A stretch of 64,000 nucleotides of DNA from Candidatus Pacearchaeota archaeon (GTDB lineage Archaea; Nanobdellota; Nanobdellia; Pacearchaeales; GW2011-AR1): NCBI GenBank assembly GCA_016866975.1, contig VGKP01000001.1, positions 34,013 to 98,012 of the forward strand. The letters run 5' to 3'. The notes under the pieces are model-generated. The model saw only the letters and a list, made by a program, of their open reading frames with translations. It was not told the origin of the DNA and searched no databases. Made by a program: the position numbers and the translations under genes. The first letter of the stretch is position 1. Every line of letters starts with the position of its first letter. Shown piece by piece: positions 2,035 through 47,033 of the stretch.

Positions 2035-2113
2035 ATGCAGTATTCGTTCAGAATACTGTTATAAAAAAAGTCAAAAATAATTATAAAATAAAAAATAAAA
2101 TTCAGAAGATTAA

Positions 2114-2428
2114 TTAATATCTTCTGTTGAAAGATCGTCTTTCTCCGAAGTCTCTTCGAGGTCTTCTAGGGGCGTTTTCTTCCATAGGTCGGGCTTCATT
2201 GACAACCAATTGTCGGCCTTCAATATCTTTGCCGTTCATTTCTTGGATTGCCTTGTCAGCTTGTGCGTCATCCGCAAGCGTGACGAATCCGAAACCTTTT
2301 GATTTTCCTGTATCCTTAAAAGAGATAACAGTTGCCTCAACCACTTCACCATAAGCAGCAAAAAGCTCTTTTAGCTTATCGTTGTTTATGCTGTAGGGTA
2401 GATTACCTACATATAGTTTCTTACTCAT
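2114..2428 (-). CDS. RRM-type RNA-binding protein
   Basis: RNP-2 (LYVGNL) and RNP-1 (KGFGFVTL) motifs are present. The 104 aa protein has an RG-rich tail. Confidence 0.8.
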   Translation of the reverse strand: MSKKLYVGNLPYSINNDKLKELFAAYGEVVEATVISFKDTGKSKGFGFVTLADDAQADKAIQEMNGKDIEGRQLVVNEARPMEENAPRRPRRDFGERRSFNRRY

Positions 2429-2519
2429 GTTTTCCTTACTCTCCTTACACTTATGTCCTCAAGGCTTGTGCCTTGATAAACTTTGAGATGAATGATGGTA
2501 TATAAAGATATGTTTTTAT

Positions 2520-12646: not shown

Positions 12647-12783
12647 TGGCCTCGAGGGGATTTGAACCCCCGACACCTGGATTTCCTCCTAAGAGAAACA
12701 ATGTTCCCTTATGGGTAAACTCTCCTTTCAGAGAGTTTCTTAGGTAAAAGTCCAGTACTCTAACCGGGCTGAGCTACGAGGCC
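12647..12783 (-). tRNA. tRNA-Lys (TTT) with an intron of about 62 nt at the canonical 37/38 position
   Basis: Acceptor ggcctcg/cgaggcc, D-arm gctc..gagt, anticodon stem ctgga/tccag, loop cTTTTa interrupted by the intron, T-arm ggggg-ttcaaat-cccct. Confidence 0.65.
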
Positions 12784-18487: not shown

Positions 18488-18924
18488 TATACAAGCTCCT
18501 TTATCTCTTTCTTGAAATCTTCAAGATCCCTAAAATCCCTATAGACTGAGGCAAATCTTATGTAAGCTATCTTATCAGATTTCTTTAACTCTCTAGAAAC
18601 TGTCTCCCCTATTAGGGACGATTTTACCTCTTTCCCGTGTTTTCTCAATTTCTCTTCTATCGATGTAAGCATTTTTTCTATTTTTTCTGATCCAATGGGC
18701 CTCTTCTCACAGGCCTTCACCAGTCCTCTTTTTATTTTTTCTCGATCAAAGTCCTCCATCCGACCATCTTTCTTAATGACTCTTAAGTGGATGTCTTCAA
18801 CCTTCTCAAGAGTGTTATAGCGTCTCTCACACTTAAGACACTCTCTCCTTCTTCGGGTAAAATTATCTATATCTCTCTTGTCCACTACCTTAGTATCTTC
18901 ATTATTGCAGTAGGGACATTTCAT
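18487..18924 (-). CDS. nrdR: Transcriptional repressor NrdR
   Basis: An N-terminal zinc ribbon (CPYC..CLKC) is followed by an ATP-cone. It lies immediately upstream of the RNR. Confidence 0.8.
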   Translation of the reverse strand: MKCPYCNNEDTKVVDKRDIDNFTRRRRECLKCERRYNTLEKVEDIHLRVIKKDGRMEDFDREKIKRGLVKACEKRPIGSEKIEKMLTSIEEKLRKHGKEVKSSLIGETVSRELKKSDKIAYIRFASVYRDFRDLEDFKKEIKELV

Positions 18925-19180
18925 TCCTTCTTGTTTACCCCAAGATGTTGTGTCTCAGAGCAATTCCGGACACAATACCTTGTAATTTTATTTTTTAACT
19001 GCATTTACTATTTAAATGTTTCTTCAAAAATAAATCTTTCGTCGCTGTTTTAGAAGAAATATTATTTTGTCACTTTGTCATGATTATTTTTGGATTTTCC
19101 CTCGAGACTCCGTCGGAAAATATTTCCCATACCCTGATTGCGATAGGAATATTTAAATTGAGGCAGATATTGATTGTTTC

Positions 19181-19420
19181 ATGAATACAAAGTTCAAAAG
19201 ACATCAATCCGTAGTGCTTATTAGAGATCCAGACCCTGAGTACGTAGAGTATCATAATGAGGATGACGCTGAATTTAAGGAGATACCTATTAAGAAAGGC
19301 ATGAAAGGAAAAGTCAATGTATTGCTCCCTAATGGCAAGTATCATGTAGAAGTATTTGATTCCAAAGGCAATATCCTTGCTTATGTGCCTATGAACGAAG
19401 AAGATCTAGAGGCAGAATAA
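19181..19420 (+). CDS. Hypothetical small protein
   Basis: The 79 aa ORF shows no recognisable motifs. Confidence 0.3.
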   Translation: MNTKFKRHQSVVLIRDPDPEYVEYHNEDDAEFKEIPIKKGMKGKVNVLLPNGKYHVEVFDSKGNILAYVPMNEEDLEAE

Positions 19421-20200: not shown

Positions 20201-21061
20201 ATGTTAATAGCTGGTTTTCCTGATACTAGAGAGATTGCTAAGAGAGTTGCACAGTCATTAGGGGCACATTATACTGAAGTCAAAGTAAAAGATTTCCCTG
20301 ATTCTGAGTTCCATATAAAATTAAAGAAGAATCCTGCCCATCAGACTGTTGTTTTCATCACATCAATCACCAAGGATCCAGATGATAAATTGATAGAGAC
20401 TATCCTTGCATCAGGGATAGCAAAAGATTATGGAGCAAAGAAAGTAGTAGTGGTCGCAACATATTTCCCCTATATGAGGCAAGACAAGCATTTCAAGAAA
20501 TATGATAGTTTCTCTTCAAAATATATTCTGGATATGTTCAAGCATGTTGATAAACTGCTTGTCATTGATCCCCACCTGCACAGAATACCTAAGATGGAAA
20601 AATTGCTGCCGCAAGCGCATGCTTTCACAGTGAATGACCTTCTTGTAGAGTACATAAAGAAAAGATTCAAGGATGACTTTTCCATAGTCGGTCCAGATGA
20701 AGAGAGTGCACAGTGGAGCCAGAAGATAGCAGACAAGCTTGGAAAGAAAGTGGTTATACTGAAAAAAACAAGATTCTCTTCGACACATGTCAAGATAAAA
20801 GAAAAACCTCTTGGAAAAAATATAATAATCATAGATGATATAATAAGCACTGGAAAGACAATAGTGGAGACGATAAAGATGGCCAAAAGGCAGGGAGCAA
20901 ATAGGATAATCTGCATGGGTATCCATGGAGTACTTGTAAATAAGGCGGATAAGCACATCTCAAAGCACGCTGAACTGATAACTACCAACACCATAGAAAA
21001 CAAATATGCAAAGATAGATGTTTCACCAGCAATTGTAAACATTCTGAAGAAATATCGCTAA
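20201..21061 (+). CDS. prs: Ribose-phosphate pyrophosphokinase
   Basis: The PRPP-binding motif IIIDDIISTGKT is present. Confidence 0.8.
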   Translation: MLIAGFPDTREIAKRVAQSLGAHYTEVKVKDFPDSEFHIKLKKNPAHQTVVFITSITKDPDDKLIETILASGIAKDYGAKKVVVVATYFPYMRQDKHFKKYDSFSSKYILDMFKHVDKLLVIDPHLHRIPKMEKLLPQAHAFTVNDLLVEYIKKRFKDDFSIVGPDEESAQWSQKIADKLGKKVVILKKTRFSSTHVKIKEKPLGKNIIIIDDIISTGKTIVETIKMAKRQGANRIICMGIHGVLVNKADKHISKHAELITTNTIENKYAKIDVSPAIVNILKKYR

Positions 21062-21091
21062 TTTTATAAGACATCTACCTCATACCATCTG

Positions 21092-22384
21092 ATGGTAAAA
21101 GACATAGTTTTTGTTGTATTTGGGGGGACGGGAGACTTGATGAGGAGAAAACTGGCTCCTGCCATATCAAAGCTTTCTGAGAAAAATCTTATAGGCAAAG
21201 ATTCCATATTGATTGGGGTATCAAGAAAGAAACTTAGTAATGAAGAATATAAAGAATATATAAATTCTGGGGCTAGCGGACTGAATTCTTTAAAAGTGAT
21301 TTATGAATCTGGAGATGCCTCGAAAGCTGATGGATTGGACAATCTCATGGAAAGGCTCAAAAATTTTAAAGATAAAGAGAAAATCTTTTATCTTGCGACC
21401 TCTTTCAAGCTTTTTCCTTCCATTCTTGGCAGACTTAAAAAAGAAGGATTTGATGATAATTCAAAGATAGTGTTTGAAAAGCCATTCGGAAATGACCTCA
21501 AATCTTCTGATTTGTTGAATGATGATATAAAGGCATATTTTCCAGAGGAGAAAACATTCAGAATAGACCATTATTTAGCGAAAGAGACTGTCCTTAATCT
21601 CACAACTCTAAAGTTCTCTAATCCAGTGATACACGACCTCATGAATAATAATTATGTGGATAAGATAGAGATAATCGCACATGAAGATCTTGGAGTAAAG
21701 GATAGGATAGAATACTATAATGATTCTGGAGCGATAAAGGACATGATACAAAGCCATCTTCTCCAGATACTAGCTTTGCTCCTTGCAGAAAAGCAAGGCA
21801 ATATCCATGAAGAAAAAAGAAATATATTGTCCGATATTAATATCATGGATTCCCCGTTAAATATTATAGGGCAATACAAGTCATATGCTGATGAATTGAG
21901 AGCAAAAGAGATCCCCCATTCAAAGACAGAGACATTTGCACAGATAGCATTGGAATGCAAGAATAGCACATGGGGAGGCGTGCCTTTGATAGTAAGCACT
22001 GGAAAGAAACTCAAGAGTAAATATGGCCAGATAAAAATATCCTTCAAAAGCGAGAAAGGCATTCCATCCAATATGCTTATCGTAGATATATATCCTAAAC
22101 AAGATATAGCTATGATATTGAATTCCAGGATGCCTGGCAGCGATATGTTTAAACCTGTAAGACTTGAATTTTGCAGGGAGTGTGAATTTGGCCCCAATAG
22201 CCCAGATGAATATTCTGTCCTCTTAAACGAGATAATAAAAGGTGAGAATCTGCTTTTCCCAAAATATGAAGAAGTAAGAGAATCCTGGAGAATTGTAGAG
22301 GATATTGAATCTCTGAGGAAGGGTATGAATTTAGTAATATATGATGATGGGAGCAATCTTGCCGACATTATTTCTAGGGATTAG
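21092..22384 (+). CDS. zwf: Glucose-6-phosphate 1-dehydrogenase
   Basis: The RIDHYLAKE and EKPFGND signature motifs are present. Confidence 0.8.
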   Translation: MVKDIVFVVFGGTGDLMRRKLAPAISKLSEKNLIGKDSILIGVSRKKLSNEEYKEYINSGASGLNSLKVIYESGDASKADGLDNLMERLKNFKDKEKIFYLATSFKLFPSILGRLKKEGFDDNSKIVFEKPFGNDLKSSDLLNDDIKAYFPEEKTFRIDHYLAKETVLNLTTLKFSNPVIHDLMNNNYVDKIEIIAHEDLGVKDRIEYYNDSGAIKDMIQSHLLQILALLLAEKQGNIHEEKRNILSDINIMDSPLNIIGQYKSYADELRAKEIPHSKTETFAQIALECKNSTWGGVPLIVSTGKKLKSKYGQIKISFKSEKGIPSNMLIVDIYPKQDIAMILNSRMPGSDMFKPVRLEFCRECEFGPNSPDEYSVLLNEIIKGENLLFPKYEEVRESWRIVEDIESLRKGMNLVIYDDGSNLADIISRD

Positions 22385-22659
22385 TTGACTTTTCTTCTTA
22401 TTAGTGCAATAAACCCTAAAATCAAGCATAGAATGCCTATGAATAGAAAAAATGTTTGCCAAAATAAGAAATCTTGTTGTGTACATGTATGCAGAGAAAT
22501 AAGACACGATCCAAAGAGACAGAGATATTCGCATTGTCCTATTTGGAGAGGGCCTAGATGAATGAGGACGCCCACTATTGTAAAGACAAAGCCTACTAAA
22601 AGAGATATTGCTATTCCTAATTTGCTATCTTTGGGAAGAATAATATGATTCTTTGCCAT
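22381..22659 (-). CDS. Small membrane protein
   Basis: Two hydrophobic helices are predicted from the sequence. Confidence 0.3.
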   Translation of the reverse strand: MAKNHIILPKDSKLGIAISLLVGFVFTIVGVLIHLGPLQIGQCEYLCLFGSCLISLHTCTQQDFLFWQTFFLFIGILCLILGFIALIRRKVN

Positions 22660-22851
22660 TGAAGGAAACAGTAATATGCATTATAAAAATATTCCTAAGA
22701 GAATTTTATAAAAGATGAAGTTTTATTAAAAGATGAAAAAGTTGGTTGTATTTGTTTTTAATCCTTCTAATGATTAAAAATTCCTATTCCATCCTAATAA
22801 GATTTAAATCCGTAAGGATATGTTTAAATACGTCTTTCTTTTAATATTTCT

Positions 22852-23403
22852 ATGAAGAGTGTTGATTTCTTTATGCAATTCATAAAAAACAAGAGAGAGA
22901 TAGGTGCTATTGCACCTAGCTCAAATTTTCTTGCAAGAAAGATTACTGGATGCGTTGATTTTGATCGCGCCAAGCTCATAGTCGAACTGGGAGCAGGCAC
23001 TGGAATCATAACAAGGCACTTGGCAGAAAGCCTTAGGCCTGAATCTAATCTCATCGTAGTTGAGCCAAATGATGAATTCCATAGGGATCTTATAAAACTT
23101 AAAAGAAGGAATATAAAAATAATAAAAGGATATGCCGAAGACCTTTCTAAACATATTGAGGATAAAGGTTTCTGCAAAGCAGACTATATAGTATCAGGGC
23201 TTCCTTTGGCTGCTTGGAGTGAGGTGCAAAGGAAAGATGTCATGGAATCAATAATGAGAGGGTTATCAGATAAGGGAGGATTTGTACAATTCCAGTATTC
23301 ACTGCAATCCTATAGAAAATTCAAAGAATTATTCTCAGATGTACAGATAAAATTCACCTTAATGAACCTGCCTCCTGCCTTTGTCTATTCGTGTTCTATC
23401 TGA
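22852..23403 (+). CDS. Class I SAM-dependent methyltransferase
   Basis: Motif I (VELGAGTGIIT) is present. Confidence 0.6.
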   Translation: MKSVDFFMQFIKNKREIGAIAPSSNFLARKITGCVDFDRAKLIVELGAGTGIITRHLAESLRPESNLIVVEPNDEFHRDLIKLKRRNIKIIKGYAEDLSKHIEDKGFCKADYIVSGLPLAAWSEVQRKDVMESIMRGLSDKGGFVQFQYSLQSYRKFKELFSDVQIKFTLMNLPPAFVYSCSI

Positions 23404-23405
23404 GA

Positions 23406-25414
<2,009 letters not shown>

Positions 25415-29567: not shown

Positions 29568-30251
29568 TCATTCTCTCTCGTTTGAGGCTAGGATATAAGA
29601 AGCTACACAACCTTTTCCTTTTTTATCACCTGCGTACACTCTGAGGTCAGATGTAACGTTTGGATCATCTGAATCCCTCATCATGACTTTTAGGGGAGAC
29701 CTGATTGCTATTATGCTCCTTCCATCGAATCCTTCAGGGGAAAACTTTTCTGTAAATTCTCCCATGCCCAAGGCTTTTTCACTGTTTGTCGCTCCCCAGA
29801 TGGCGACATATCCTTTTTCTCCTGGAAGATGAGCAGATATACATGAAACGCCATATCCTCCTCTCTGGGAGCTTCTCCAAACCCCCCAAGTGCCAGCTTC
29901 TTTCTGTTCGAGAGAAAAGCCATCGCCTTGATAGCCTGCTGCTGAAGTGATTAGTGCAGCCTCTACATTCCCAGGTGAAGATATGCGGACAATTGTAGAA
30001 CCAACAAGAGCGCGAGTAACATCTTTCACATCGTTGGCGAAAGGATTGCCTTGCACGTTAATTAGATAGTCTCGTGCCTGCCTTTTAAGGCCAGAGGTCA
30101 GTTCATCATGAACAGTAAAATCTCCATCGGCAAGCTTTAATAGAAGAGGATTTTCTTGTATATCCTTTTGCAAGTCTGGGAATATCCCGGTCAGCACCCT
30201 TGTTATAAGGCCTGATGTGATGCCACCCAATTCCTTCTTTAAGCCACTCAT
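29568..30251 (-). CDS. Island gene 5: hypothetical protein
   Basis: The 227 aa ORF overlaps gene 4 by 4 bp. No motif was recognised. Confidence 0.45.
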   Translation of the reverse strand: MSGLKKELGGITSGLITRVLTGIFPDLQKDIQENPLLLKLADGDFTVHDELTSGLKRQARDYLINVQGNPFANDVKDVTRALVGSTIVRISSPGNVEAALITSAAGYQGDGFSLEQKEAGTWGVWRSSQRGGYGVSCISAHLPGEKGYVAIWGATNSEKALGMGEFTEKFSPEGFDGRSIIAIRSPLKVMMRDSDDPNVTSDLRVYAGDKKGKGCVASYILASNERE

Positions 30252-31291
30252 TCTTTTCTCCCCACATTAATGGTGTGGTGAATCCTGCTGTCATTTTGAA
30301 AAGACTCCATACTCTGGAACAATTGACAAGCTATATTTAAAGCTTTCCTTTCTTCCTCTCCTGCGCTGTTATATTTTAAACTTATGAGCTCATAAGCTTG
30401 TCCTGGAGAAATCGCATAGACTGGCAACATTTCATTCAACACAAGGTTTACCAGTTGCTGTCTTAGAACTGCATTTGGATTAAATAAAACTCTGCCTGCA
30501 GAGCGCATATTTGCGAAAGACTCCCAGTCTATGAATCCTGATCCTATAGTAGATGTTTTGACCCTTATTTTTCCAAAAACAGACTTTAGAGAGAGAGCAT
30601 CATTTTGAGACTTTGGAAGCTCTGGCTGGGCTTGAATTCGTTCGGCATAACAGTCTCTTACAGCCTTAAGATCGGGGTCGATAATGACTTCTTTGGATTT
30701 TAATGACCTTCTATGTGACTCTTCAAGATTTTTATACAATTCTGAATCTAGGAGCGGTTCTAGTTCACTTAGAAGGTCTGTGCTTTGCTCAAAACGGAAA
30801 AGCAGACGTTCAAGAAGAGGAGAAAATCTTCCTTGACGATTATCAGTACCTTTCATCATATACTCGAAAAAGTCTAATCCTGGACCGCGTTGCAATTCTA
30901 CAAGATATTCATTAGCTGCCTCCCTTAAGAGAGTACGGTCTAAGATTATTTCGCGTAAACTAGAAGTGTCTGGACATTGAACCAGATTTGAAAGAAAAAG
31001 CCTCCCGACCAAAGGAGAGTTTCTCATAGAGAGCATGCTATAATAATTTATCGGATTGCTGGATTTTGGAATTAGGAAGTTTGGCTTTAACACACTCTCT
31101 TCATTTGCACGTGCCTGATCAAACAATGATGGTATTATATCTTCCCACCTGTCTCCTTTATTTGACCAGTTATAACAAACTCCCCAGAGAGTGAATTCTG
31201 GTCTGTATTTGCAGGATTCGTAATTTGCCAGAATAGTGGAAGCTACTTCCTCACAAGCTCCTCTGATGTCATTTCCCATCGTATCCTCCAA
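30248..31291 (-). CDS. Island gene 4: hypothetical protein
   Basis: The 347 aa ORF overlaps gene 3 by 23 bp. No motif was recognised. Confidence 0.45.
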   Translation of the reverse strand: MEDTMGNDIRGACEEVASTILANYESCKYRPEFTLWGVCYNWSNKGDRWEDIIPSLFDQARANEESVLKPNFLIPKSSNPINYYSMLSMRNSPLVGRLFLSNLVQCPDTSSLREIILDRTLLREAANEYLVELQRGPGLDFFEYMMKGTDNRQGRFSPLLERLLFRFEQSTDLLSELEPLLDSELYKNLEESHRRSLKSKEVIIDPDLKAVRDCYAERIQAQPELPKSQNDALSLKSVFGKIRVKTSTIGSGFIDWESFANMRSAGRVLFNPNAVLRQQLVNLVLNEMLPVYAISPGQAYELISLKYNSAGEEERKALNIACQLFQSMESFQNDSRIHHTINVGRKE

Positions 31292-34200
31292 GGGCTGCTT
31301 TTATCTGAGAAAGAGCTGCAGAAACATCTTTTGGATCTGACTTATTCAATATCCTATCTATCCTGCCATCATAATCTTCTCTCTCTACATCCACATTCGC
31401 AAGATTAAGCCCTGATTCTAGCTTGACGAAATATTCTGCATGTAATGGAACTGATTTTCTTACCTTAGGTTCTGAAACTTCTTCTTGTATGCGATGTTCT
31501 ATCACCTTTGTTTCAGGCTTAAGCCTCAATCCAAGAGGTTCATTTGGCAAATTGACTTGGTGGCGTTGAGCTACTATCACATATGCCTCAACATTCTCTC
31601 CTCTTTCATCATCTCCTTTGCTTATCCTGCCCTGATATGTGCCTGTGAAATAAGGAATGACAGAAAAACCATAGTGCCCCATATCTTTTGAGAATGCGTC
31701 CCTACAAGAGTCGTCTATCTTCTTTGATGTCAGCACTGTTACAAGATATTTTCCATTTCCTAGCACCCTATTTGCCTCCCGCAAGAAACTGTCCCTGCCT
31801 TCCCTATCAAGAAGATCTAAGACCAAAGAAGCTACCATTACATCTTGTGAGGCATTATCTATCCTTACTTCGTTCTGATAATGGCCTTCTGAGTTGAATA
31901 CAGATTGAGGTGAACTGTTTAAAGGAACAAGCTTATTGAGATTGCATATATCTCCCAAATAACATGTGCTTTCAGGTATCTTTGATTCTGAGCAAGCATC
32001 TATCCCATGATGCAATTGGAATGGATTCAAATCTATTGCAGTAGTTGGCCTTTTTATTGTCTGAGCGACTGCCAGCGGCCCAGCACCTGCATCAAGTATT
32101 CTTTCGAGAGAGGTACAATATCTTTTTTCTATTCCTAGAAGAATATCCTTGGTCAGCCTTGCGATGTTTCCTGCATAGGTCTCATCCCATTTTCTATTAT
32201 ATATTGATGAAATGAAGAACGCATTATTCGCATGAGAAAGGGCTGCGCTGTACGTCATGCCTCCTGCACCTTCCATGGAATTAAAATGGGCTGCCAAGAC
32301 ATCTCTCACTCTCAGATTTTTAAGAGTATCGATGACTGATTTTTGGTCGTCTCCCTCTATCCATGACAGCATTTCTGAATCACTGACCTCTCCAGGATTT
32401 TGATGAATCTCCTCGATAAGCTTCTCCTTTCTTATACGCTTTCTTTCAAGATAACTCTCAACTGTCTGCAAGATAGGGGAACGAACATTTAGTATGTGGA
32501 CCTGTCTCCTCTGGCCAGATCTTACTGTCCGGCTTATCAATTGCTCGTGCTTGCAAGGCACAGTAGTCTCCTCAAAATTTATTATATAAGTTGCTTCCTT
32601 TGCTTCCATGCCTTCCCTAAGGGCCCTTGTTGTAACCAGCACAGAGACATCTGGATCTGTAGCAAACTCATGCAATACTTTCTCCCTTTCTGACATCCCA
32701 TATATCTCATAAGGAAGTATCTTTAGATGTTGCCTTGCCTGTGGCGAGAGATCGGAAAGATATGTCTCATCTCCCCTCATAAAGCCATCTTCCACAAGTA
32801 TGCATTTCTGCCATTCTTTTATCTTCACCTCTTTGACTTCTGCAGAAACTGTCTGGTCTATACGCCTTGCCCCGAGATCACTAAGCATAGACTCTAACTC
32901 AGTCGTCACATCTCTCTGATATTCGCATACCACCAAACACTTCTCACCTTTTTCTTTTATCTCCTTGACAAGGCCTCTAGTGAATTCCATACGCGATTTT
33001 TTGACTCTGCGTACTTTGTCTTCAAGACCTGGATTTGAATTGAAGAAAGATTGCATCCTCTCCTGCAAAGGATCATCGCCATCACATAAATGACCAAGAT
33101 TGTCTGGAAGAAGCTTGCTTGGATTTGCTATAAGATATCTTAGAAGAAGGTACTTTTCTCTACCGTCAAATACTTCTGCTTCAAGAAGAGCACTGAAAAG
33201 TTCTGTCTCTGCATCAGTTATATCATATGTGCGAGTCTCTGAGATTGGTTTCTTGACACTAGGATCGACCTCTTCAAGAGTGCGGATAGGAAAAACAGAC
33301 TTTAAGTCTATGAATGCCCTGACTTTCTTGGCAGTATCCTTGCCTTCTATAAATTTCTTGAAATCATCCGGGTCTTTTACAAATTCAGTCACATATGCTG
33401 CCCAAGCCAAGCCTTCAGGAGTATTTCCTATACCTGTACCTGACATCAATATGGCCCAGCGTGCAGGCCTGGCAATAGAAGCTATCGCCCTAGACCTTTT
33501 GGCGTCGGTACCAACAAGATTATGAAACTCATCCACTATAGCGTAATAAGGCATGTTCTCTGGAAAGACTTTCTGTTTCAGGGCGTCAAACACTGCCAAA
33601 GACTCTGACTTCGACTCTTCTCTAAGTATTATCTCGTGAAGCTCCGGTAAGGGAGTGTTTCTTTTCTTTAATTTTTCAACGCGCGTACTACCTATAAGAG
33701 GTCTAAGAAATTCATAGGCTTTGGAAGGTGTAGGATATTCGCAAAATACTCTGACCATTTCCCCCATTTCATCCTGAGGTTCAGAACCATTCCCCAGAGT
33801 TGCCCCCCTGAAAGTCATGTCATAACCTACAATGACAAAGCTTGTACCTGGAAGTGAAGCATGCCTTATCGCCTGTTCCCTGTTCTCTCTAGTTATTATC
33901 GCTATTTCGGGATTTACAAATAGCCTCTCAATCTCCCTGAGCCATATTGGCACTATATATCCTGGACAAGTTATGAATGTTTTTATGCTCTCTTGTCCTG
34001 CAGAAATCTCTGGGAGCATTCTATTGATGGGGACGATAGCACTTAGTGCGCTTATAGTCTTCCTTGTGCCTGGCTTGCTGAGCTCAATGACTTTTCCTCT
34101 CTGTGCCACTGTTGCTCCAACAAGCTTCTGCTCAAGAGAAGGCAGAGGATGCCTCTCAAATGAAAAATATCCTGCAGGCGCTACTTTATTTATAAGCGCC

Positions 34201-34382
34201 TTGAATCCTCCTGGATAGTCTTTGGAACTATCTAAAAGCTTTTTCCAATAAGGGACTTGTTTTAGAAAATCAGTATCGAACGGCCTTGGCAAAAACCCTA
34301 AACGATCTACAACGGCCCTTAACCTGCGCTCGAGGTCTGAAGAAGATGCTAAGTCACTATTTTGTTGGATGCTGCCGCTCAT
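31269..34382 (-). CDS. Island gene 3: SNF2-family helicase fused to a C-terminal class I SAM-dependent methyltransferase domain
   Basis: Helicase motifs are SKPGTRKT (I), VDEFHN (II), MSGTGIGNTPEGL (III, SNF2-like) and LVTTRALREGME (VI). The MTase motif I is ILDAGAGPL, followed by AIDLN and DVMVASLVLDLL. No (D/N/S)PP(Y/F/W) DNA-MTase motif was found. Confidence 0.6.
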   Translation of the reverse strand: MSGSIQQNSDLASSSDLERRLRAVVDRLGFLPRPFDTDFLKQVPYWKKLLDSSKDYPGGFKALINKVAPAGYFSFERHPLPSLEQKLVGATVAQRGKVIELSKPGTRKTISALSAIVPINRMLPEISAGQESIKTFITCPGYIVPIWLREIERLFVNPEIAIITRENREQAIRHASLPGTSFVIVGYDMTFRGATLGNGSEPQDEMGEMVRVFCEYPTPSKAYEFLRPLIGSTRVEKLKKRNTPLPELHEIILREESKSESLAVFDALKQKVFPENMPYYAIVDEFHNLVGTDAKRSRAIASIARPARWAILMSGTGIGNTPEGLAWAAYVTEFVKDPDDFKKFIEGKDTAKKVRAFIDLKSVFPIRTLEEVDPSVKKPISETRTYDITDAETELFSALLEAEVFDGREKYLLLRYLIANPSKLLPDNLGHLCDGDDPLQERMQSFFNSNPGLEDKVRRVKKSRMEFTRGLVKEIKEKGEKCLVVCEYQRDVTTELESMLSDLGARRIDQTVSAEVKEVKIKEWQKCILVEDGFMRGDETYLSDLSPQARQHLKILPYEIYGMSEREKVLHEFATDPDVSVLVTTRALREGMEAKEATYIINFEETTVPCKHEQLISRTVRSGQRRQVHILNVRSPILQTVESYLERKRIRKEKLIEEIHQNPGEVSDSEMLSWIEGDDQKSVIDTLKNLRVRDVLAAHFNSMEGAGGMTYSAALSHANNAFFISSIYNRKWDETYAGNIARLTKDILLGIEKRYCTSLERILDAGAGPLAVAQTIKRPTTAIDLNPFQLHHGIDACSESKIPESTCYLGDICNLNKLVPLNSSPQSVFNSEGHYQNEVRIDNASQDVMVASLVLDLLDREGRDSFLREANRVLGNGKYLVTVLTSKKIDDSCRDAFSKDMGHYGFSVIPYFTGTYQGRISKGDDERGENVEAYVIVAQRHQVNLPNEPLGLRLKPETKVIEHRIQEEVSEPKVRKSVPLHAEYFVKLESGLNLANVDVEREDYDGRIDRILNKSDPKDVSAALSQIKAALGGYDGK

Positions 34383-35988
34383 TGACTACAGCCCCCTGAA
34401 ATCTTGACCTTTGCGAGCCAATATAGTAAGTAAGGAGGCTCTCCATCATTGTGCCTCTCTTTCCATCCGGAGCAGCCAATGGCTCGTCTCCTTTAAGTGT
34501 GGTGAAGACAGATTGCCTTACTCTCTGAGGTATAGAATCATAAATTTTTATGCCTAGCTGATAGTCATCTAATGCAGACTTGAGATCAATTTCTTTGATA
34601 GATCTTTCCTCGACCAATTTCTCGAATGCAGGCCATAACACTGCATCATATTTATTGAATCTCCTCATCAGATGCTTTATAGGAAATCCATATTGCGTTG
34701 ACAATCCTGCTAGCTCTCTATCACTCTCCCTGAATTCGTTTTTTTCTCCTGAAGAGTTTTCTATCTCTCCTCTCTTTGGAAGATAGCCTTTAAGCCATAA
34801 TCCCTCAAAAATGAAATCAAGCTCGTTTGAAGAATATTGAAGACTTTGATTAATCATGTTTGCTGTCAGCGCCATCATACCTTCATAGACATGATTAGTT
34901 GTTGATTCACTCGTCTTTCCTCTGCTCTTATTGAAGAAAGGCGCTACTCTCTTCATTCTCTCGTCCTTGTCTATAACTTCGGCAGCTTTTGCTACTCTTA
35001 TCCACCAACCCAGGCTCGTCCTTATCCTTGTCTCTAAAGCAGTATCATTACGAACAATTCTCAGTGTGCTAAAACGAAGAGCGTCAAACATTTCTTCAAC
35101 TTCCACTCCTTCAACCCTATGTCTTGGATTTGAGAAGAATTCATAGGCCGGCCTTGCATTTGAGCTCTGCGCAAGATATTCAAAGGCATCTTTATAGTTA
35201 GCACCAAGATGAATAGACTGCATAAATTCGTTTATGCAGGGCGTAACCATCTCATTCGCGAGAAGAGAATTTATTCGATTCCTGTGTATCTTAAATATCT
35301 TGCCTCTATATGCCTTCATGAAGTCTATATTGCTCTGGAGGCTGAATGTGAATCCTGAATTTGCTGCACTATTGAGGACCTTCTCTGGAACACCTAAAGA
35401 TCTCAATTCATCAAAAGATTCTAGAGCCTTGCCTTTTTGTCCGCTTATCTGACTAAATGCCTCTGCTATAAGATACCCTTTATGGCCCTTAAGATAACTG
35501 ACAAGGGCTGGATCGACTATTACTTGATAGGAGGGCTTAGGAACACTCTGGATAGGCGGTTTATTAGGGCCTGGTTTATACTGCTTTGTATTCAAAGCTG
35601 GGACTCTGGGCAATGCGCATCCAGTAAATACGTTCTCTAGAAGATGTTCAAGACTACGTGCTCCAACCAGTCCTTCTCTTTCCAGGATATCTACCTGTAA
35701 ATCCCTGATGTTCTGCCCTAGCTGCCCATTGTGGAAAGTAGTCATGAATTTGACCCTTGGATTGCCAAAAGGAAGCTCTATGCAGGCTATGTAAACCTGA
35801 CTATTGGTTGATTGATAAGATTCTGTCTCTTGGGCGCACACCTTCTGAATATCTGAAAGGATGCGCTCTAGTTCGTCAGTAGTTATCTGGCCTTTTGTAG
35901 ATATCTTGCCTGATATAATTGCCTCAAAATACTTGTCATGACCTAATCTTGCTACTATCTCCTCCCTGGAGCCTATAACCTTACTCAT
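34357..35988 (-). CDS. Island gene 2: hypothetical protein
   Basis: The 543 aa ORF overlaps gene 3 by 26 bp. No motif was recognised. Confidence 0.45.
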   Translation of the reverse strand: MSKVIGSREEIVARLGHDKYFEAIISGKISTKGQITTDELERILSDIQKVCAQETESYQSTNSQVYIACIELPFGNPRVKFMTTFHNGQLGQNIRDLQVDILEREGLVGARSLEHLLENVFTGCALPRVPALNTKQYKPGPNKPPIQSVPKPSYQVIVDPALVSYLKGHKGYLIAEAFSQISGQKGKALESFDELRSLGVPEKVLNSAANSGFTFSLQSNIDFMKAYRGKIFKIHRNRINSLLANEMVTPCINEFMQSIHLGANYKDAFEYLAQSSNARPAYEFFSNPRHRVEGVEVEEMFDALRFSTLRIVRNDTALETRIRTSLGWWIRVAKAAEVIDKDERMKRVAPFFNKSRGKTSESTTNHVYEGMMALTANMINQSLQYSSNELDFIFEGLWLKGYLPKRGEIENSSGEKNEFRESDRELAGLSTQYGFPIKHLMRRFNKYDAVLWPAFEKLVEERSIKEIDLKSALDDYQLGIKIYDSIPQRVRQSVFTTLKGDEPLAAPDGKRGTMMESLLTYYIGSQRSRFQGAVVNERQHPTK

Positions 35989-37621
35989 ATATATCTCCTA
36001 GAGAATAATTTCTCCAATTTACACCAAGCTTGCTCAGAACCTTTCTAGAGCGTGCTTCTTTGACCCTTTGTGTGAACCCTGAGATTAGACCAGTTGGATT
36101 AGAAGGCATCTCGAACTCAAGAGTGAAGATAGGGCTTCCCAAGCAGGAAGTTGTCCTACTACCTGAAATTTTCTCTCCTTGAAGAGATTCCTTGATTGAA
36201 GTTGACAAGTCATGATTAACTGCTCTTGTAAAATTAGTCTCTGCTGTCTCTTGAGTGCATGGAACGATATACGATAAAGATACCGTGTTTCCTGTACTTG
36301 ATGCAAGAGTGACTATTGGTAGTGTGTATGGAAGTGTTGAAGAATTATAAGTTGCATGTGCAAGATTGTAATTTTCCCTGTTTGAATCCAAAACTCTTAA
36401 GAATTGATGAGCTATTGGTATTCCCTGCTCCCAGCCATTTGACTGCGTAAGAAAATCCTGTATCGCCTTTTCAATATATTCTTTTTCTTTCAGAGAGAGT
36501 GAGGCACCCATACTGATAGCATTGTGCAAAGATAGAGCTCCAAGATAAGGCAATCTTAATTTTCCATATTCATTTGAATCTTTGAATTCTCTTGTTCTAA
36601 GTAAGGCAGCAGATTTGAGATCATCCCAAGATGAATCGAGAGGAAGGCCAATAGAGGATGCTAATGCTACCAATTCTGGAGTCAGTACGAAAGACCTCTC
36701 GTCGGTTTCAAGAGCATTGCGGACGAGATCTTCTATATTCTGAGGAAAAGCCACCTCATAAGCTTTTAAACATTGATCATAAGAAGCTCCTGCAATCCTA
36801 CGCGCAGTCATAACGCCAAGCTCTTCCAAAGAAAATTCATCAGTCTTAGGGGCTGCGGCTAGACGAGAATGAAGGCCAACATTCTCCTCCCTGAGACGGT
36901 CAAGTGCCTCATTTGCTTCTAAAAGTGCGACCTCTGACTGCTCTGCCTGTCCACTCAAATTCTGGTATTCAGACTCAAGAGTGCTATAACTCTGGCTTAA
37001 CTTGGAAGCAGTTTCCTCAGCTTTATTGGCGCGTGCATTTGCCTCTTCTAACAAAGTATTGCTTGAGCTAGTAAGTGTCTGAAGCTGATGGTTGAGTTTA
37101 CCATTCTGTTCTTCAAGAGCCTGATTGGCTCCCTGAAGAGTTTCGTATTCCTTAATTTTAGCCACTAAAGCACGATTAGTAGTGCCAAGTTGTACCTTAG
37201 TATTTTCCAATCCTCTTTCAACATTAGTTAGCTTTCCTTCCAAATCTCTCTGAAGATTATTAAATTCTCTGCGCGAAACTAATTTCTTGCCAGAGGGTAA
37301 GATTTCTATAGTATATTTCTTAAAGCACCCAGAACCATGTCGGGCTGTAGTAGATGAAAGAAGAGATTCTACTGCTTGAGTAAGAATATTCTGTCCCAAA
37401 TTATCTACTGAGATAACCTCTTTACATAGTCCTAAATACACTTGAATTTTAGATTTATCTAATATTGGGATCACGCTTATTGGCAAACCATGTTTTCTGG
37501 ACATTGTAGACGCGACATTTTTAAAATGATTATGAAAAGAGCTCCAGCAGTCTTGGTGAAACATTTCATAAACAATACGCATTACATATGGCTCTTCAGA
37601 TTCTTGTTCTTGATTTGACAT
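35981..37621 (-). CDS. Island gene 1: hypothetical protein with a long central coiled-coil
   Basis: The 546 aa protein has heptad-rich residues at about 115-260 (LEGKLTNVERGLENTKVQL...ALDRLREEN). Confidence 0.45.
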   Translation of the reverse strand: MSNQEQESEEPYVMRIVYEMFHQDCWSSFHNHFKNVASTMSRKHGLPISVIPILDKSKIQVYLGLCKEVISVDNLGQNILTQAVESLLSSTTARHGSGCFKKYTIEILPSGKKLVSRREFNNLQRDLEGKLTNVERGLENTKVQLGTTNRALVAKIKEYETLQGANQALEEQNGKLNHQLQTLTSSSNTLLEEANARANKAEETASKLSQSYSTLESEYQNLSGQAEQSEVALLEANEALDRLREENVGLHSRLAAAPKTDEFSLEELGVMTARRIAGASYDQCLKAYEVAFPQNIEDLVRNALETDERSFVLTPELVALASSIGLPLDSSWDDLKSAALLRTREFKDSNEYGKLRLPYLGALSLHNAISMGASLSLKEKEYIEKAIQDFLTQSNGWEQGIPIAHQFLRVLDSNRENYNLAHATYNSSTLPYTLPIVTLASSTGNTVSLSYIVPCTQETAETNFTRAVNHDLSTSIKESLQGEKISGSRTTSCLGSPIFTLEFEMPSNPTGLISGFTQRVKEARSRKVLSKLGVNWRNYSLGDIYE

Positions 37622-37640
37622 GTAAATGCCTTCATTTTCT

Positions 37641-37650
37641 TATTTTTAAA
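37641..37650 (-). promoter_or_regulatory. Candidate TATA box for the five-gene island operon, implying a leaderless or short-leader transcript
   Basis: Reads tttaaaaata on the coding strand 20-29 nt upstream of the gene 1 ATG. Confidence 0.35.
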
Positions 37651-37735
37651 CCTTTCTATATGTTATCCCTTAGTAGTTACACTACTGGCTTCTGATATTT
37701 AAGAGAACCTATTTTATAAGATATTAGTGAGTGAT

Positions 37736-41015: not shown

Positions 41016-42608
41016 ATGAGCGAGAAGCAGCCTGTATATGTCCTACCTGAACATGTTTCTAGAACTCTCGGCAAAGATGCACAACGCAACAATATTCTTG
41101 CTGCAAAGATCATTGCAGATATTGTGAAGACCACTTTGGGACCAAAGGGAATGGATAAGATGCTTGTTGATGCAGCAGGAGATGTGATTGTCACAAACGA
41201 TGGAGTAACTATATTGGAAGAGATGGAAATAGACCATCCTGCTGCAAAAATGCTTGTTGAGATAGCCAAGACACAGGAACATGAAGTAGGAGACGGAACT
41301 ACTACTGCTGCTTTACTCGCAGGCAAATTGCTGGAGCATGCTGAAAAACTTCTAGATAGAAAGATACATCCAACTGTGATTGTAAAAGGTTACAGGAAGG
41401 CTGCAGAAAAATCACATCAACTTCTGCAAGAGCTTGCTTTGCCTGTGAGGGATGCAATCATTTTAAGGCAGATTGCTATGACTGCCATGACTGGAAAGGG
41501 TGCTGAAGGACATAAAGAAAAGCTCGCAGACCTTATTGTGAAAGCTGCTGAACAAGTAGCGGCCGGAAGAGAGATATCTTTGAATGATATAAAGGTGCAG
41601 AAGTTGAAAGGACAGGACGTTCAGGAAAGCGAGATAGTGCAAGGACTTGTTTTGGAGAGGGAGAGATCAAATAGTGCGATGCCCTCAATTGTCAAAGATG
41701 CGAAGGTTCTCCTTGTTGACTTTTCTCTTGAAATTAAGAGTCCTGAAAGCGAGGCTAAGATCGCTGTGTCTACCCCTGAGCAGCTAGATAGTTTCCTTGC
41801 ATCTGAGGAAAGATATCTTAAGATGATGACTGACAAGATACTCTCGACCGGGGCAAACGCAGTATTCTGCCAAAAAGGAATAGATGATGTTGCACAATAC
41901 TATCTTGCGCAGGCAGGTGTATTTGCATGCCGAAGAGTGTCAAAATCAGACATGGAGTTTCTTTCCAGGGCTACTGGAGCAAAAATATTATCAAACTTGC
42001 ATGATGTGCATGCCTCTGCCCTTGGAGATGCTAAAGAAGTTGAGGAAAAGACGAATGGTGATGATCATTTTATATATTTTAGAGGGTGCCAGAATCAAAG
42101 AGTAGCTACATTGATATTAAGAGGCCAGACTGTGCATGTTGTCGATGAGATAGAGAGGGCAGTAAAGGATGGCCTTGGAGATGTCATCTCTACTGTAAAG
42201 AGCGGAAAAATCGTGCCAGGAGGAGGAGCGATAGAGATTGAGTTGGCCAGAAGATTAAGAGTCTATGCAAAAAGCATGGGTGGAAGAGAACAGCTGGCAA
42301 TAGAAGAGTTTGCGCACGCACTAGAGAGCATACCTGAATCCCTTGCTGAGAATGCTGGCCTTGACCCTCTTGATATTTTGACCGAGTTAAGAAAGAGACA
42401 TGAAGCTGGAATGCAAGGGCATGGGTTGAATCTTTTTACTGATACTATTGAAGATACTCTAAACGCGGGAATTGTAGAGCCCCTAAAAGTCAAGACACAG
42501 GCAATAAGCTCTGCATCTGAGGTCGCAATGATGATATTGCGTATTGATGATGTCCTTGTGAGCAAGAGAGGCGCGCAACAGATGCCAAGATATGAAGGCA
42601 TGGATTAA
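41016..42608 (+). CDS. ths: Thermosome subunit (group II chaperonin)
   Basis: The 530 aa protein has group II chaperonin motifs ([21 protein letters not shown]). Confidence 0.9.
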
Positions 42609-45820: not shown

Positions 45821-45891
45821 GGCCCATTAGGCTAATGGTAGACCGGGTCGTTTACACCGACCATGCCGAAGTTCGATTCTTCGATGGGCCA
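45821..45891 (+). tRNA. tRNA-Val (TAC)
   Basis: Acceptor ggcccat/atgggcc, anticodon stem ggtcg/cgacc, loop ttTACac, T-arm cgaag-ttcgatt-cttcg. Confidence 0.7.
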
Positions 45892-46170: not shown

Positions 46171-46241
46171 GGCCCTATAGTCTAGTGGCAGAACGCCTCT
46201 TTCACGTGGAGGACGCCGGGGTTCGATTCCCTGTGGGGCCA
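46171..46241 (+). tRNA. tRNA-Val (CAC)
   Basis: Acceptor ggcccta/tggggcc, anticodon stem cctct/ggagg, loop ttCACgt, T-arm cgggg-ttcgatt-ccctg. Confidence 0.7.
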
Positions 46242-46265: not shown

Positions 46266-47033
46266 TTAATCTAATTCGTAAGCTCCGTTCCCTTTGAAGC
46301 GTAGAAATCCTTTATCTCTGAGTATTTGAAGTTGCTGCCGTATTTTGTCTTTAATGTGGAGATTATTAGGGTGGATTCTCGCGAGTTCTCCTTCAAATCT
46401 GTAAATTTCATCAAGCTGAAAAGTTTTCTTGCTAAGTGAATGGATGACATTGAGAATATCAATTGTCCACCCTCTTTCCGAAAGAGGAGTTTTCTTCATA
46501 AAATCAACTTTTCTCCACTTTTCATTTACTTCTTTCTTTTCTAATATAGCACCATCTTTAATAATCGAGATTCTGCCTTCTTTGGGTATTTTTTCCATTA
46601 AGAGGTTGCATCCAACCCATCCTCTTCTTCGCGCATTCTCAGAGAGAGGTCTTCTCTTTTCTATAATTTCCTCAACAAAAAAGAAAGAAGGCACGATAAG
46701 CAGATTTTTGACACAATAGTCCTTAGTGTATTGGAGAAAGAGGAAATTGGGTCGCGTTCCTTCTTTAATTGACTGAATCATTGTAGAAAAGGCTCCATCT
46801 ACAATTTTCTTAGCAAGAGTGTTATTTTGGCTTTTCAGTTGGAAAGTCTCTTGACAAATTTCACAAATAAAATCTGCGACGGGAGTTCCAGCTTTCAATT
46901 TTAGAATGTGTTCGCTTAAACAAGATACACAAAAAAGATTTTTCTCGGCCCAATCTTCGCTCAGAACACGTATTCGTTGCGTGTTGCTTTTGTACTTATC
47001 AAAAACACCTTGATTATACAATTGTAATTCCAT
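46266..47033 (-). CDS. DpnI/DRP-like restriction endonuclease candidate (methyl-directed type IIM) with a C-terminal winged helix
   Basis: The 255 aa protein resembles DpnI as recalled from memory. It has an N-terminal CxxC..CxxC region, a central catalytic region and a C-terminal KIRQQLQILRDKGFL winged-helix-like segment. The assignment is not database-verified. Confidence 0.45.
   Translation of the reverse strand: MELQLYNQGVFDKYKSNTQRIRVLSEDWAEKNLFCVSCLSEHILKLKAGTPVADFICEICQETFQLKSQNNTLAKKIVDGAFSTMIQSIKEGTRPNFLFLQYTKDYCVKNLLIVPSFFFVEEIIEKRRPLSENARRRGWVGCNLLMEKIPKEGRISIIKDGAILEKKEVNEKWRKVDFMKKTPLSERGWTIDILNVIHSLSKKTFQLDEIYRFEGELARIHPNNLHIKDKIRQQLQILRDKGFLRFKGNGAYELD

Follow-up and report, generated by a model that had tools for sequence, protein, structure and literature searches.

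A SNF2 ATPase fused to a class I methyltransferase, and its AAG-fold partner, in a conserved gene cassette of DPANN archaea and metagenomic bacteria

The stretch of Candidatus Pacearchaeota archaeon DNA analysed here (64,000 nucleotides of contig VGKP01000001.1, referred to as the window) contains on its minus strand an open reading frame at 31269..34382, gene C, that encodes from an ATG start a protein of 1037 residues, which according to its translation, Pfam matches and an alignment of homologs combines a SNF2 ATPase with a class I S-adenosylmethionine (SAM)-dependent methyltransferase. The protein exactly matches NCBI entry FJZ18_00430 from this DPANN archaeon (P0001), where it is labelled a hypothetical protein. 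Gene C is one of five minus-strand genes, A to E, and the module is best explained as having gene C as its core and, as its other constant member, gene E, whose product has a degenerate AAG/Mpg fold. The AAG-like fold of this conserved neighbour points back to DNA and to an unusual DNA base methylation, and our favoured reading, to which we tentatively give a probability of about 0.4, is that a DNA-tracking methyltransferase would write non-canonical purine methylation, with the AAG-like partner binding or excising the product. In broader terms, we rate the cassette as a probable case of motor-coupled nucleic-acid (or chromatin) methylation. A preliminary description of this DNA had pointed to the fusion in gene C; the present analysis goes beyond it in supporting a large unnamed family, a conserved operon, and a coupling to an AAG-derived protein.

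The open reading frame and every motif quoted in that description were found at their places, and its assignment of the N-terminal two-thirds as SNF2-like is confirmed by two Pfam models that score above their curated cut-offs. SNF2-rel_dom (PF00176) matches residues 105-397 (E 6.8e-6, 25.8 bits versus a cut-off of 24.9), which is the N-terminal ATPase lobe at 33192..34070 (-) with a helical insertion at about residues 190-280, and Helicase_C (PF00271) matches residues 563-623 (E 1.9e-11, 44.6 bits versus 23.5), the second lobe at 32514..32696 (-) including most of motif VI; distant members of the gene C family reach 85-104 bits in the Pfam SNF2 ATPase test. Conservation was read from an alignment of ten full-length gene C homologs (alignment A1). 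Motif I is the Walker A variant PGTRKT (residues 104-109, 34056..34073), motif II is the DExH box DEFH (residues 284-287, 33522..33533), motif III is SGTG (residues 314-317), and the SNF2-type motif VI is QLISRTVRSGQ (residues 614-624, 32511-32543), all on the minus strand. DEFH, with its residues D284, E285 and H287, as well as SGTG and QLISRTVRSGQ, show no variation in A1; DEFH and SGTG are conserved family-wide, and the motif VI pattern QxxxRxxRxGQ is kept across the wide family. As judged from these motifs, the N-terminal two-thirds of gene C is a SNF2-family ATPase of superfamily 2 with an atypical motif I. SNF2 enzymes are double-stranded DNA translocases, and the motor of gene C is best explained as an ATP-driven translocase of this kind. 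The fusion is framed by two basic regions: residues 1-95 (34098..34382 (-), isoelectric point (pI) 9.6) contain the conserved A1 columns LGFxP...FLxQVPYW...PSLEQKLVG and gave no family match in a Pfam scan, and the C-terminal tail (residues 946-1037, 31272..31547 (-)) carries LRLRPE..., a basic Lys/Arg patch and AEYFVKxESGLxL in A1 and is basic in most homologs (pI 9-10.6). The homolog P0005 (1152 residues) has a unique Gly-rich C-terminal extension of about 100 residues (A1 columns 1150-1254), which is missing from the other homologs.

When gene C and its C-terminal part were searched against profile databases, the helicase was confirmed, and the methyltransferase was sub-threshold alone but significant once a homolog profile was compared with the PDB. 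Residues 642-1037 in isolation gave sub-threshold Pfam matches to Methyltransf_8 (E 0.005), Methyltransf_25 (0.016) and Methyltransf_11 (0.025). With Methyltransf_11, gene C scores 15.6 bits versus a gathering score of 21.2, and its relatives P0127, P0053 and P0060 score 52.5, 43.9 and 43.7 bits; the gathering score of the RRP8-type family PF05148 (Methyltransf_8), 27 bits, is not reached by gene C. An NCBIfam scan of the domain yielded nothing above threshold and some methyltransferase matches below it, and phmmer against the PDB returned a single weak match for the C-terminal part, RRP8/nucleomethylin 2zfu (E 1.6). As the direct Pfam and NCBIfam scans stayed sub-threshold, recognition of the domain required profiles built from homologs and a structure model. 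For each of the ten homologs, the segment at residues 686-945 was cut from A1 and realigned (alignment A2), and the A2 profile matched 3sm3 (E 2.3e-6), an arsenite methyltransferase (6.7e-5) and RRP8 2zfu (1.9e-4) in the PDB, with the Gly-rich motif I and, versus 3sm3, the post-I acidic residue lining up. The confident AlphaFold2 model of the region (mean predicted local distance difference test score (pLDDT) 83.6, predicted template modelling score 0.85) consists of a four-helix lid and a subsequent seven-strand Rossmann-like core.

The methyltransferase domain spans residues 686-945 (31548..32327 (-)), with the helical lid at residues 692-755 and the core thereafter. Its motif I ILDAGAGPL forms the SAM-binding loop (residues 762-770, 32073..32099 (-)), the post-I motif AIDLN (residues 782-786, 32025..32039 (-)) contains the ribose-binding acidic residue D784 at the end of strand 2, and the strand 4/motif IV position is occupied by DVMVASLVLDLL (residues 847-858, 31809..31844 (-)); the model strand 161-167 corresponds to residues 846-852, i.e., strand 4, and SLVLDLL comes next. 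Among 120 long family members, D764, G768, D784, E869, R872, G905 and G914 are conserved in 89-95%, and D784 is invariant in A1. The methyltransferase that had been proposed from motifs I, post-I and IV is thus borne out by the PDB profile matches, the modelled seven-strand core, and the conserved SAM-site residues. As these residues are so widely conserved, the domain is probably active. A non-catalytic, structural or SAM-binding role, for example as a SAM sensor that regulates the motor without methyl transfer, could account for the window protein's own Pfam scores below the gathering thresholds and for the lack of an evident catalytic residue in motif IV. However, the SAM-binding D764, G768 and D784 are each found in 93% of the 120 divergent members, the lid residues Y728, W732, N739 and R742 in 67-74%, and distant members are well over the Methyltransf_11 threshold, so that we consider such a role highly improbable; Methyltransf_11 enzymes are generally without a fixed catalytic motif.

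The fold class can be narrowed further. RRP8-likeness is recurrent, as Methyltransf_8 is the best Pfam match of the isolated domain and is also among the matches of P0049, and 2zfu was found by phmmer as well as by the profile. The nearest structural relatives of the domain are RRP8/nucleomethylin (Methyltransf_8), which makes m1A in 25S rRNA, and Bud23/WBSCR22, which makes m7G in 18S rRNA. The absence of a (D/N/S)PP(Y/F/W) motif, which had been noted for gene C, holds across the family alignment, as a motif search found it in 0/10 full-length homologs, and the C5 motifs PC (motif IV) and ENV (motif VI) do not occur within the methyltransferase domain. It is also true that gene C has no PP dipeptide at all, but little weight can be put on this argument alone, since 7% of composition-matched shuffles are likewise without it. 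Our data therefore support that the C-terminal approximately 260 residues are a class I SAM methyltransferase of the Methyltransf_11/RRP8-like type and not an amino-type (N6A/N4C) or C5 DNA methyltransferase, and the answer to the METHYLTRANSFERASE question on this part of gene C is class I, small-molecule/RNA/protein type. The earlier reading as a non-DNA-type enzyme stands with respect to the fold class but not with respect to a non-DNA substrate, as the fold class does not settle the substrate and the neighbour is AAG-like.

The fusion had also been described as being of an unfamiliar kind. It is not unique, as 346 representatives with generic labels were found, but we have to regard it as undescribed: the SNF2-methyltransferase family has no curated NCBIfam, PADLOC or PHROG model, and searches of the full-text literature gave no description of the fusion or of the five-gene cassette. 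A word-indexed search returned only ten close relatives of gene C (33-100% identity, all full length), and the full-length architecture is kept in nine other proteins at 33-71% identity. When the methyltransferase-domain profile was then run with HMMER against the full set of 1.84 billion cluster representatives, 346 proteins were found at E<=1e-3, of which 152 reach E<=1e-10 and 33 reach E<=1e-30; nearly all of the 346 are 770-1626 residues long with the domain near the C-terminus, and in most of them the SNF2 part was also matched by a full-length hidden Markov model. The architecture thus recurs in nine homologs and, at greater distance, in well over 100 cluster representatives, which rules out an assembly artefact as the source of the fusion. 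Pfam analysis of eight distant members identified SNF2-rel_dom and Methyltransf_11 (up to 52.5 bits), with Helicase_C in five of the eight; P0097 is an exception, with ResIII and DEAD helicase models in place of SNF2-rel_dom. Read from these matches, gene C is a narrow DPANN branch of a large SNF2+Methyltransf_11 family and not a singleton. The source databases use names such as 'SNF2-related protein [Nanoarchaeota archaeon]', 'methyltransferase domain-containing protein [bacterium]', 'SAM-dependent methyltransferase' and, in IMG, 'UbiE / superfamily II DNA/RNA helicase'. The archaeal hosts are metagenome-assembled genomes of Woesearchaeota and Pacearchaeota as well as Nanoarchaeota, with archaeal ribosomal and transcription genes among the neighbours. 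Bacterial contexts were recognised by MraY-FtsW-MurG-FtsA (locus L014), NusG-SecE together with type IV secretion system pilins (L015), and a penicillin-binding protein transpeptidase on a 1.43-Mb contig (L017), and from this gene content we infer that the bacterial hosts belong to the Candidate Phyla Radiation (CPR)/Patescibacteria.

Gene E (29568..30251 (-), 227 residues, FJZ18_00420) is the second constant member, and its relation to AAG/Mpg emerged from several comparisons. The first cue was that parts of the sequence look like the N-terminal helix and like the 'IVETEAY' strand of 3-methyladenine/alkyladenine DNA glycosylases. Early support consisted of a PF02245 (Pur_DNA_glyco) match at E 0.15 in one homolog only, and an early sequence-profile search against the PDB gave only noise (bromodomains, E ~0.07). 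A Foldseek search with the E model then returned only nine matches at E<=1e-3, all of them human AAG (E 4e-6 to 5e-5, probability 1.00); relative to AAG, the model has an extra N-terminal helical region of about 65 residues. In addition, the gene directly downstream of the distant family member P0157 (1566 residues, L018) matches PF02245 above its cut-off (E 8.3e-8, 32.2 bits versus 27) and also matches the E profile (1.2e-13), and PF02245 is the best or the only weak match of other E proteins (7e-4 in L009, 0.04 and 0.1 in L012, 0.11 in L008). Comparison by hhalign of the E alignment, with the L018 member added, and an AAG alignment, which was shallow because a search with human AAG gave only vertebrate orthologs, resulted in probabilities of 92-96% (P 6.8e-7 to 6e-9) over AAG residues 86-185; the human AAG sequence was checked against 1f4r and 7xfh. 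On the grounds of these profile and model comparisons, we regard the AAG/Pur_DNA_glyco fold and family membership of gene E as settled. The protein is divergent and without the catalytic Glu, and it keeps aromatic equivalents of AAG Tyr127 and Tyr159 plus a PGT motif. E probably binds a flipped base and is better not classed as a canonical glycosylase.

The genetic linkage of C and E reaches far beyond the close relatives of gene C. Among 12 distinct loci whose flanks are long enough, about 10 have an E-like gene adjoining C, and these include the Nanoarchaeota locus L012, which has two E copies, and the bacterial-context loci L015, L017 (weak match) and L018; no E-like gene was detected in L014, or in L016, where the flank is short. 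The narrow E profile found only six proteins among 5.8 billion, all beside SNF2-methyltransferase genes, and E thus appears to be dedicated to this module. Some of the distant loci have further features. In L012 (Nanoarchaeota contig JBHPFA010000004.1), the SNF2-methyltransferase and E-like genes are followed by four paralogous genes (14289-17954 (+); 529, 213, 258 and 217 residues) with internal repeats of about 48 residues and no Pfam family match, and the second E-like gene (18681-19334) lies beyond this run, followed by a gene for a Hjc resolvase. In L018 (contig JBDHUY010000010.1), three tandem paralogs (20767-24308 (+); 478, 284 and 377 residues, 42-64% identity, with internal repeats) lie downstream of the 1566-residue SNF2-methyltransferase and the Pur_DNA_glyco-like gene, and genes for an NYN ribonuclease and a UvrD/PD-(D/E)xK helicase-nuclease lie just upstream. 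In L016, a Fic-domain gene and a SET/zf-CDGSH gene (657-2516 (-)) are found directly upstream of the 1316-residue SNF2-methyltransferase member, SET being a protein lysine methyltransferase domain. The kinship of the methyltransferase domain with rRNA-modifying enzymes raises the question of whether the target is RNA or a ribonucleoprotein: the motor could remodel a ribosome or tRNA complex, the RRP8/Bud23-like domain could methylate an RNA base, and E could bind RNA via its FMT-C/AAG-type fold, by analogy to the C-terminal domain of Met-tRNA formyltransferase. We consider this improbable, as the AAG-like fold of E points back to DNA.

In the window, the five genes A to E cover 29568-37621 and overlap by 4-26 nucleotides, which fits one transcription unit. 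Gene A (35981..37621 (-), 546 residues) encodes a protein with a small domain at its N-terminus, followed by a coiled coil whose length varies and by a conserved C-terminal domain of about 280 residues; Pfam, NCBIfam, PADLOC and PHROG scans gave only weak coiled-coil-type matches. Its homologs of 454-1003 residues are encoded directly upstream of B in L001-L009, and the C-terminal domain is also encoded upstream of the bacterial family member in L015 (E 1e-6). Gene B (34357..35988 (-), 543 residues, pI 8.8) is kept upstream of C in nine loci. Its product has an alpha/beta region at the N-terminus, joined by a basic linker rich in Gly, Lys and Pro to a helical C-terminal part, and no relative of this protein was found in Pfam, NCBIfam, PADLOC, PHROG or, by profile search, the PDB. 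The linker of the Woesearchaeota B homolog in L003 (4728-6362 (+)) includes an unbroken run of about 16 glycines, and other B homologs have Lys/Pro/Gly-rich segments of variable length at this position. Gene D (30248..31291 (-)), with a likely true start at ATG 31279 behind GGAGG, encodes a helical protein of about 343-347 residues that is kept downstream of C and had no family or PDB match in the same searches. Invariant residues are rare in A, B and D, hhalign detected no paralogy among A, B, C, D and E, and we take A, B and D to be structural parts or adaptors of the module in the DPANN branch. The intergenic region upstream of A (37622..37735 (-)) contains AT-rich TATA-like elements, with TTTAAAAATA about 30 nucleotides before the ATG, and is by this reading of the sequence a putative operon promoter. 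Rfam and tRNA scans revealed no RNA element in or beside the cassette.

The order A-B-C-D-E with all five genes is found in the window, L002, L003, L004 and L008, and the part covered is also seen in L001, L006 and L007, where contigs end. L013 has B, D and E, with a 753-residue gene at the A position that is not matched by the A profile, and in L009/L011 the genes are rearranged such that E-A-B is divergent from C-D. The conserved order and this rearrangement favour a functional over an accidental linkage of A-E; the flanking genes differ in every locus. In the distant branches that keep C and E, A, B and D are absent or undetectable, and no further shared partner emerged when the large neighbours in the distant loci were compared by BLAST. 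These observations bear on the idea that gene C is a protein methyltransferase on a chromatin motor, which would modify Lys, Arg, Glu or the N-terminus of DNA-bound proteins. Histones, Alba-like proteins or the cassette proteins A, B and D would then be the targets, with E and others as substrates or adaptors, and the chemically diverse fold neighbours of the methyltransferase include protein-modifying types. However, this leaves unexplained why the partner has an AAG fold with retained base-pocket aromatics and is kept across the archaeal and bacterial branches, and A, B and D are just the genes that the distant C+E branches lack or that are undetectable there; we therefore regard it as unlikely.

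In the favoured reading, a DNA-tracking methyltransferase with an AAG-like reader or eraser, the motor would track along duplex DNA and hand it to the methyltransferase, which would write an 'alkylation-type' purine methylation, such as N7-G, N1-A or N3-A. Chemistry of this type is known from the fold relatives, with RRP8 making m1A and Bud23 making m7G, both in rRNA, and AAG binds or excises 3-methyladenine, 7-methylguanine, hypoxanthine and ethenoadenine. E would then flip out the methylated base and bind it. As the general base Glu125 is missing, E would be either a non-hydrolytic reader or a glycosylase restricted to labile cationic methylpurines, and for the latter there is a precedent in the glycosylases TAG and AlkD, which work without a classical general base. 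In the DPANN branch, A, B and D may scaffold or target the complex. C and E would thus be a writer plus reader/eraser pair that marks or damages DNA, and this could serve to mark the own DNA, to damage foreign DNA, or to form a toxin-antidote arrangement; we consider it most likely that ultra-small symbiotic archaea and bacteria would use the pair to tell self from non-self or to protect their genomes. A more specific form of this proposal is that gene C is the first known deliberate writer of ring-nitrogen 'damage-type' methylpurines (m7G, m3A, m1A) in double-stranded DNA, which E reads or excises, in a methylate-then-recognise/excise system for epigenetic marking or restriction that is common to DPANN archaea and bacteria of similar lifestyle. 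In this specific form, we hold the proposal to be doubtful.

Several findings weigh against the favoured reading. On the side of the motor, the close DPANN subfamily has PG[TS][RQ]K[TS] as Walker A motif, in which the second Gly of the canonical GxGK[T/S] is replaced by Arg or Gln, with the Lys and Thr/Ser kept; canonical GxGKT is present in more distant family members, but with the non-canonical motif the ATPase activity of gene C is not assured. The methyltransferase domain is acidic (pI ~5-6), unlike typical autonomous DNA-binding enzymes, and its fold neighbours are chemically diverse. The E model is moderately confident (mean pLDDT 63.7, from six sequences), and E is acidic as well (pI ~5-6), unlike human AAG. 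The AAG general base Glu125 of the ETEAY motif aligns to Ala105 in the window protein and to A, M, G, V, R or S in other E members, with Glu only in L015, most members have a shorter His136 loop or none, neither Asn169 nor Arg182 is conserved, and the intercalating Tyr162 is replaced by Arg or His; a glycosylase activity of E is doubtful for this loss of Glu125, the His136 loop, Asn169 and Arg182. No apurinic/apyrimidinic endonuclease, lyase or other nuclease was detected in the cassette by Pfam, NCBIfam, PADLOC and PHROG scans, no PADLOC system model was matched beyond generic SNF2 C-lobe similarity, relatives were not found in cultured phages, plasmids or, by pattern scan only, IMG/VR contigs, and the window locus is surrounded by genes for glycolysis and housekeeping functions and is not part of a defence island.

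Some of these points also concern the idea of a toxin/antidote or abortive-infection pair, in which C would alkylate invader or self DNA and thereby block replication, and E would remove or shield the lesions, in analogy to DarT/DarG or to the self-resistance glycosylases of genotoxin gene clusters. The C-E linkage is as much expected here as in the favoured reading, and the distribution is sporadic, since the narrow-family patterns matched only 2 of about 185,000 species-representative genomes, with different flanking genes in every locus and a Fic gene nearby in L016. However, without the catalytic Glu an efficient lesion removal by E is doubtful, there is no association with mobile elements, phages or plasmids, five genes including large structural proteins are unlike compact toxin-antitoxin modules, and the window locus is placed inside a glycolytic gene string. 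We consider this idea quite unlikely.

Comparison with known systems suggests, by analogy, that the nearest parallels in working principle are motor-coupled DNA modifiers (DNMT5, JBP2, Type I/III/ISP, DISARM) and writer/glycosylase pairs. The fungal and algal DNMT5 likewise combines motor and base modifier, a SNF2 ATPase and a C5 cytosine DNA methyltransferase, in one polypeptide, and JBP2 (SNF2 plus thymidine hydroxylase) is a looser parallel; in both, the SNF2 motor couples base modification to ATP-driven DNA engagement. DNMT5 differs from gene C by the reversed domain order with an N-terminal methyltransferase, whereas the methyltransferase here is Methyltransf_11/RRP8-like without PC/ENV, the hosts are prokaryotic, and there is a dedicated AAG-like partner gene. 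Type ISP/IIG/III enzymes and DISARM (SNF2 helicase DrmD, methylases DrmMI/MII) also use a superfamily-2 motor together with a methyltransferase on DNA, but their methyltransferases are amino-type or C5 DNA methyltransferases with DPPY-type motifs, and they come with target-recognition domains and nucleases. The cassette has none of these: Pfam, NCBIfam and PADLOC found no Mrr or PD-(D/E)xK nuclease, gamma-class N6A methyltransferase or target-recognition domain in C or its neighbours. That gene C is distinct from Type ISP/IIG, as had been stated, is therefore correct. The writer/glycosylase pairs, namely plant 5-methylcytosine with DME/ROS1, DarT/DarG, and genotoxin clusters with AlkZ or YtkR2, pair a DNA base modification with a recognising or removing protein and hence follow the same modify-then-recognise/remove logic, without any sequence relationship to the cassette.

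Membership in described defence systems was also considered. PADLOC indicated a weak C-lobe similarity of gene C to DrmD, BrxH, HmaA and ZorD (E 4e-8 to 1e-5), and NCBIfam defence helicase models scored 12-15 bits versus cut-offs of 950-1500. DISARM, BREX, Zorya, Hachiman and MADS were rejected, as the matches covered only about 70-110 residues of the C-lobe (E 4e-8 to 1e-2), with one weak mad2 match (E 0.004); the neighbours match no defence-system component in PADLOC, and DrmA/B/C, Pgl or Brx partners were not among them. An origin from a mobile element or virus is likewise unsupported, with no relatives in phages, plasmids and the pattern-limited IMG/VR scan, no repeats found flanking the cassette, and GC content only slightly raised over it.

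The window is otherwise an ordinary piece of archaeal chromosome, with glycolysis genes on both sides of the cassette and genes for glucose-6-phosphate dehydrogenase, phosphoribosyl pyrophosphate synthase, pyruvate phosphate dikinase, two thermosome proteins and a class II ribonucleotide reductase with intein, as well as tRNAs. The ribonucleotide reductase (14265-18230 (-), 1321 residues) carries an intein with a LAGLIDADG homing endonuclease and a TSCPD domain at the end (Pfam Ribonuc_red_lgC, Intein_splicing, LAGLIDADG_3), and of the two thermosome (Cpn60_TCP1) paralogs the one at 23406-25013 (-) (E 4e-77) diverges far more from the family profile than the one at 41016-42608 (+) (E 1e-175). 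A full-length DpnI-like restriction endonuclease of the Dam-replacing family is encoded at 46266-47033 (-) (PF06044 E 2e-67, plus DpnI_C), adjoining two tRNA-Val genes (45821-45891 and 46171-46241); this methyl-directed gene implies that the archaeon may restrict m6A-methylated GATC DNA. At 12647-12783 (-), Rfam identified a tRNA over 137 nucleotides (54.6 bits) that ARAGORN did not report and that probably is an intron-containing archaeal tRNA. Finally, the 630-residue protein encoded at 50067-51959 (+) has only a central NTP_transf_2/Pol-beta-like nucleotidyltransferase domain that is recognisable.

Motor-coupled DNA methyltransferases are central in restriction-modification, in BREX/DISARM-type defence, and in eukaryotic epigenetics, and to our knowledge every example so far relies on a dedicated class of DNA methyltransferase and yields m6A, m4C or m5C. 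Here, a different methyltransferase class, otherwise acting in rRNA m1A/m7G formation, on small molecules, or on proteins, is joined to a SNF2 motor and genetically tied to a derivative of an alkylated-purine glycosylase, in a family that is restricted to uncultivated DPANN archaea and metagenomic bacteria. Such hosts have reduced genomes, which seldom retain a cassette of 8 kb unless selection for it is strong. Should DNA prove to be the substrate, these cells would enzymatically install bases that have so far counted as nothing but alkylation damage, with a repair glycosylase fold co-opted to read or erase them, and further natural DNA modifications and further defence or epigenetic strategies would have to be recognised. 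Even with a protein or RNA target, a large, unnamed and easily recognised protein family and a five-gene operon have been defined.

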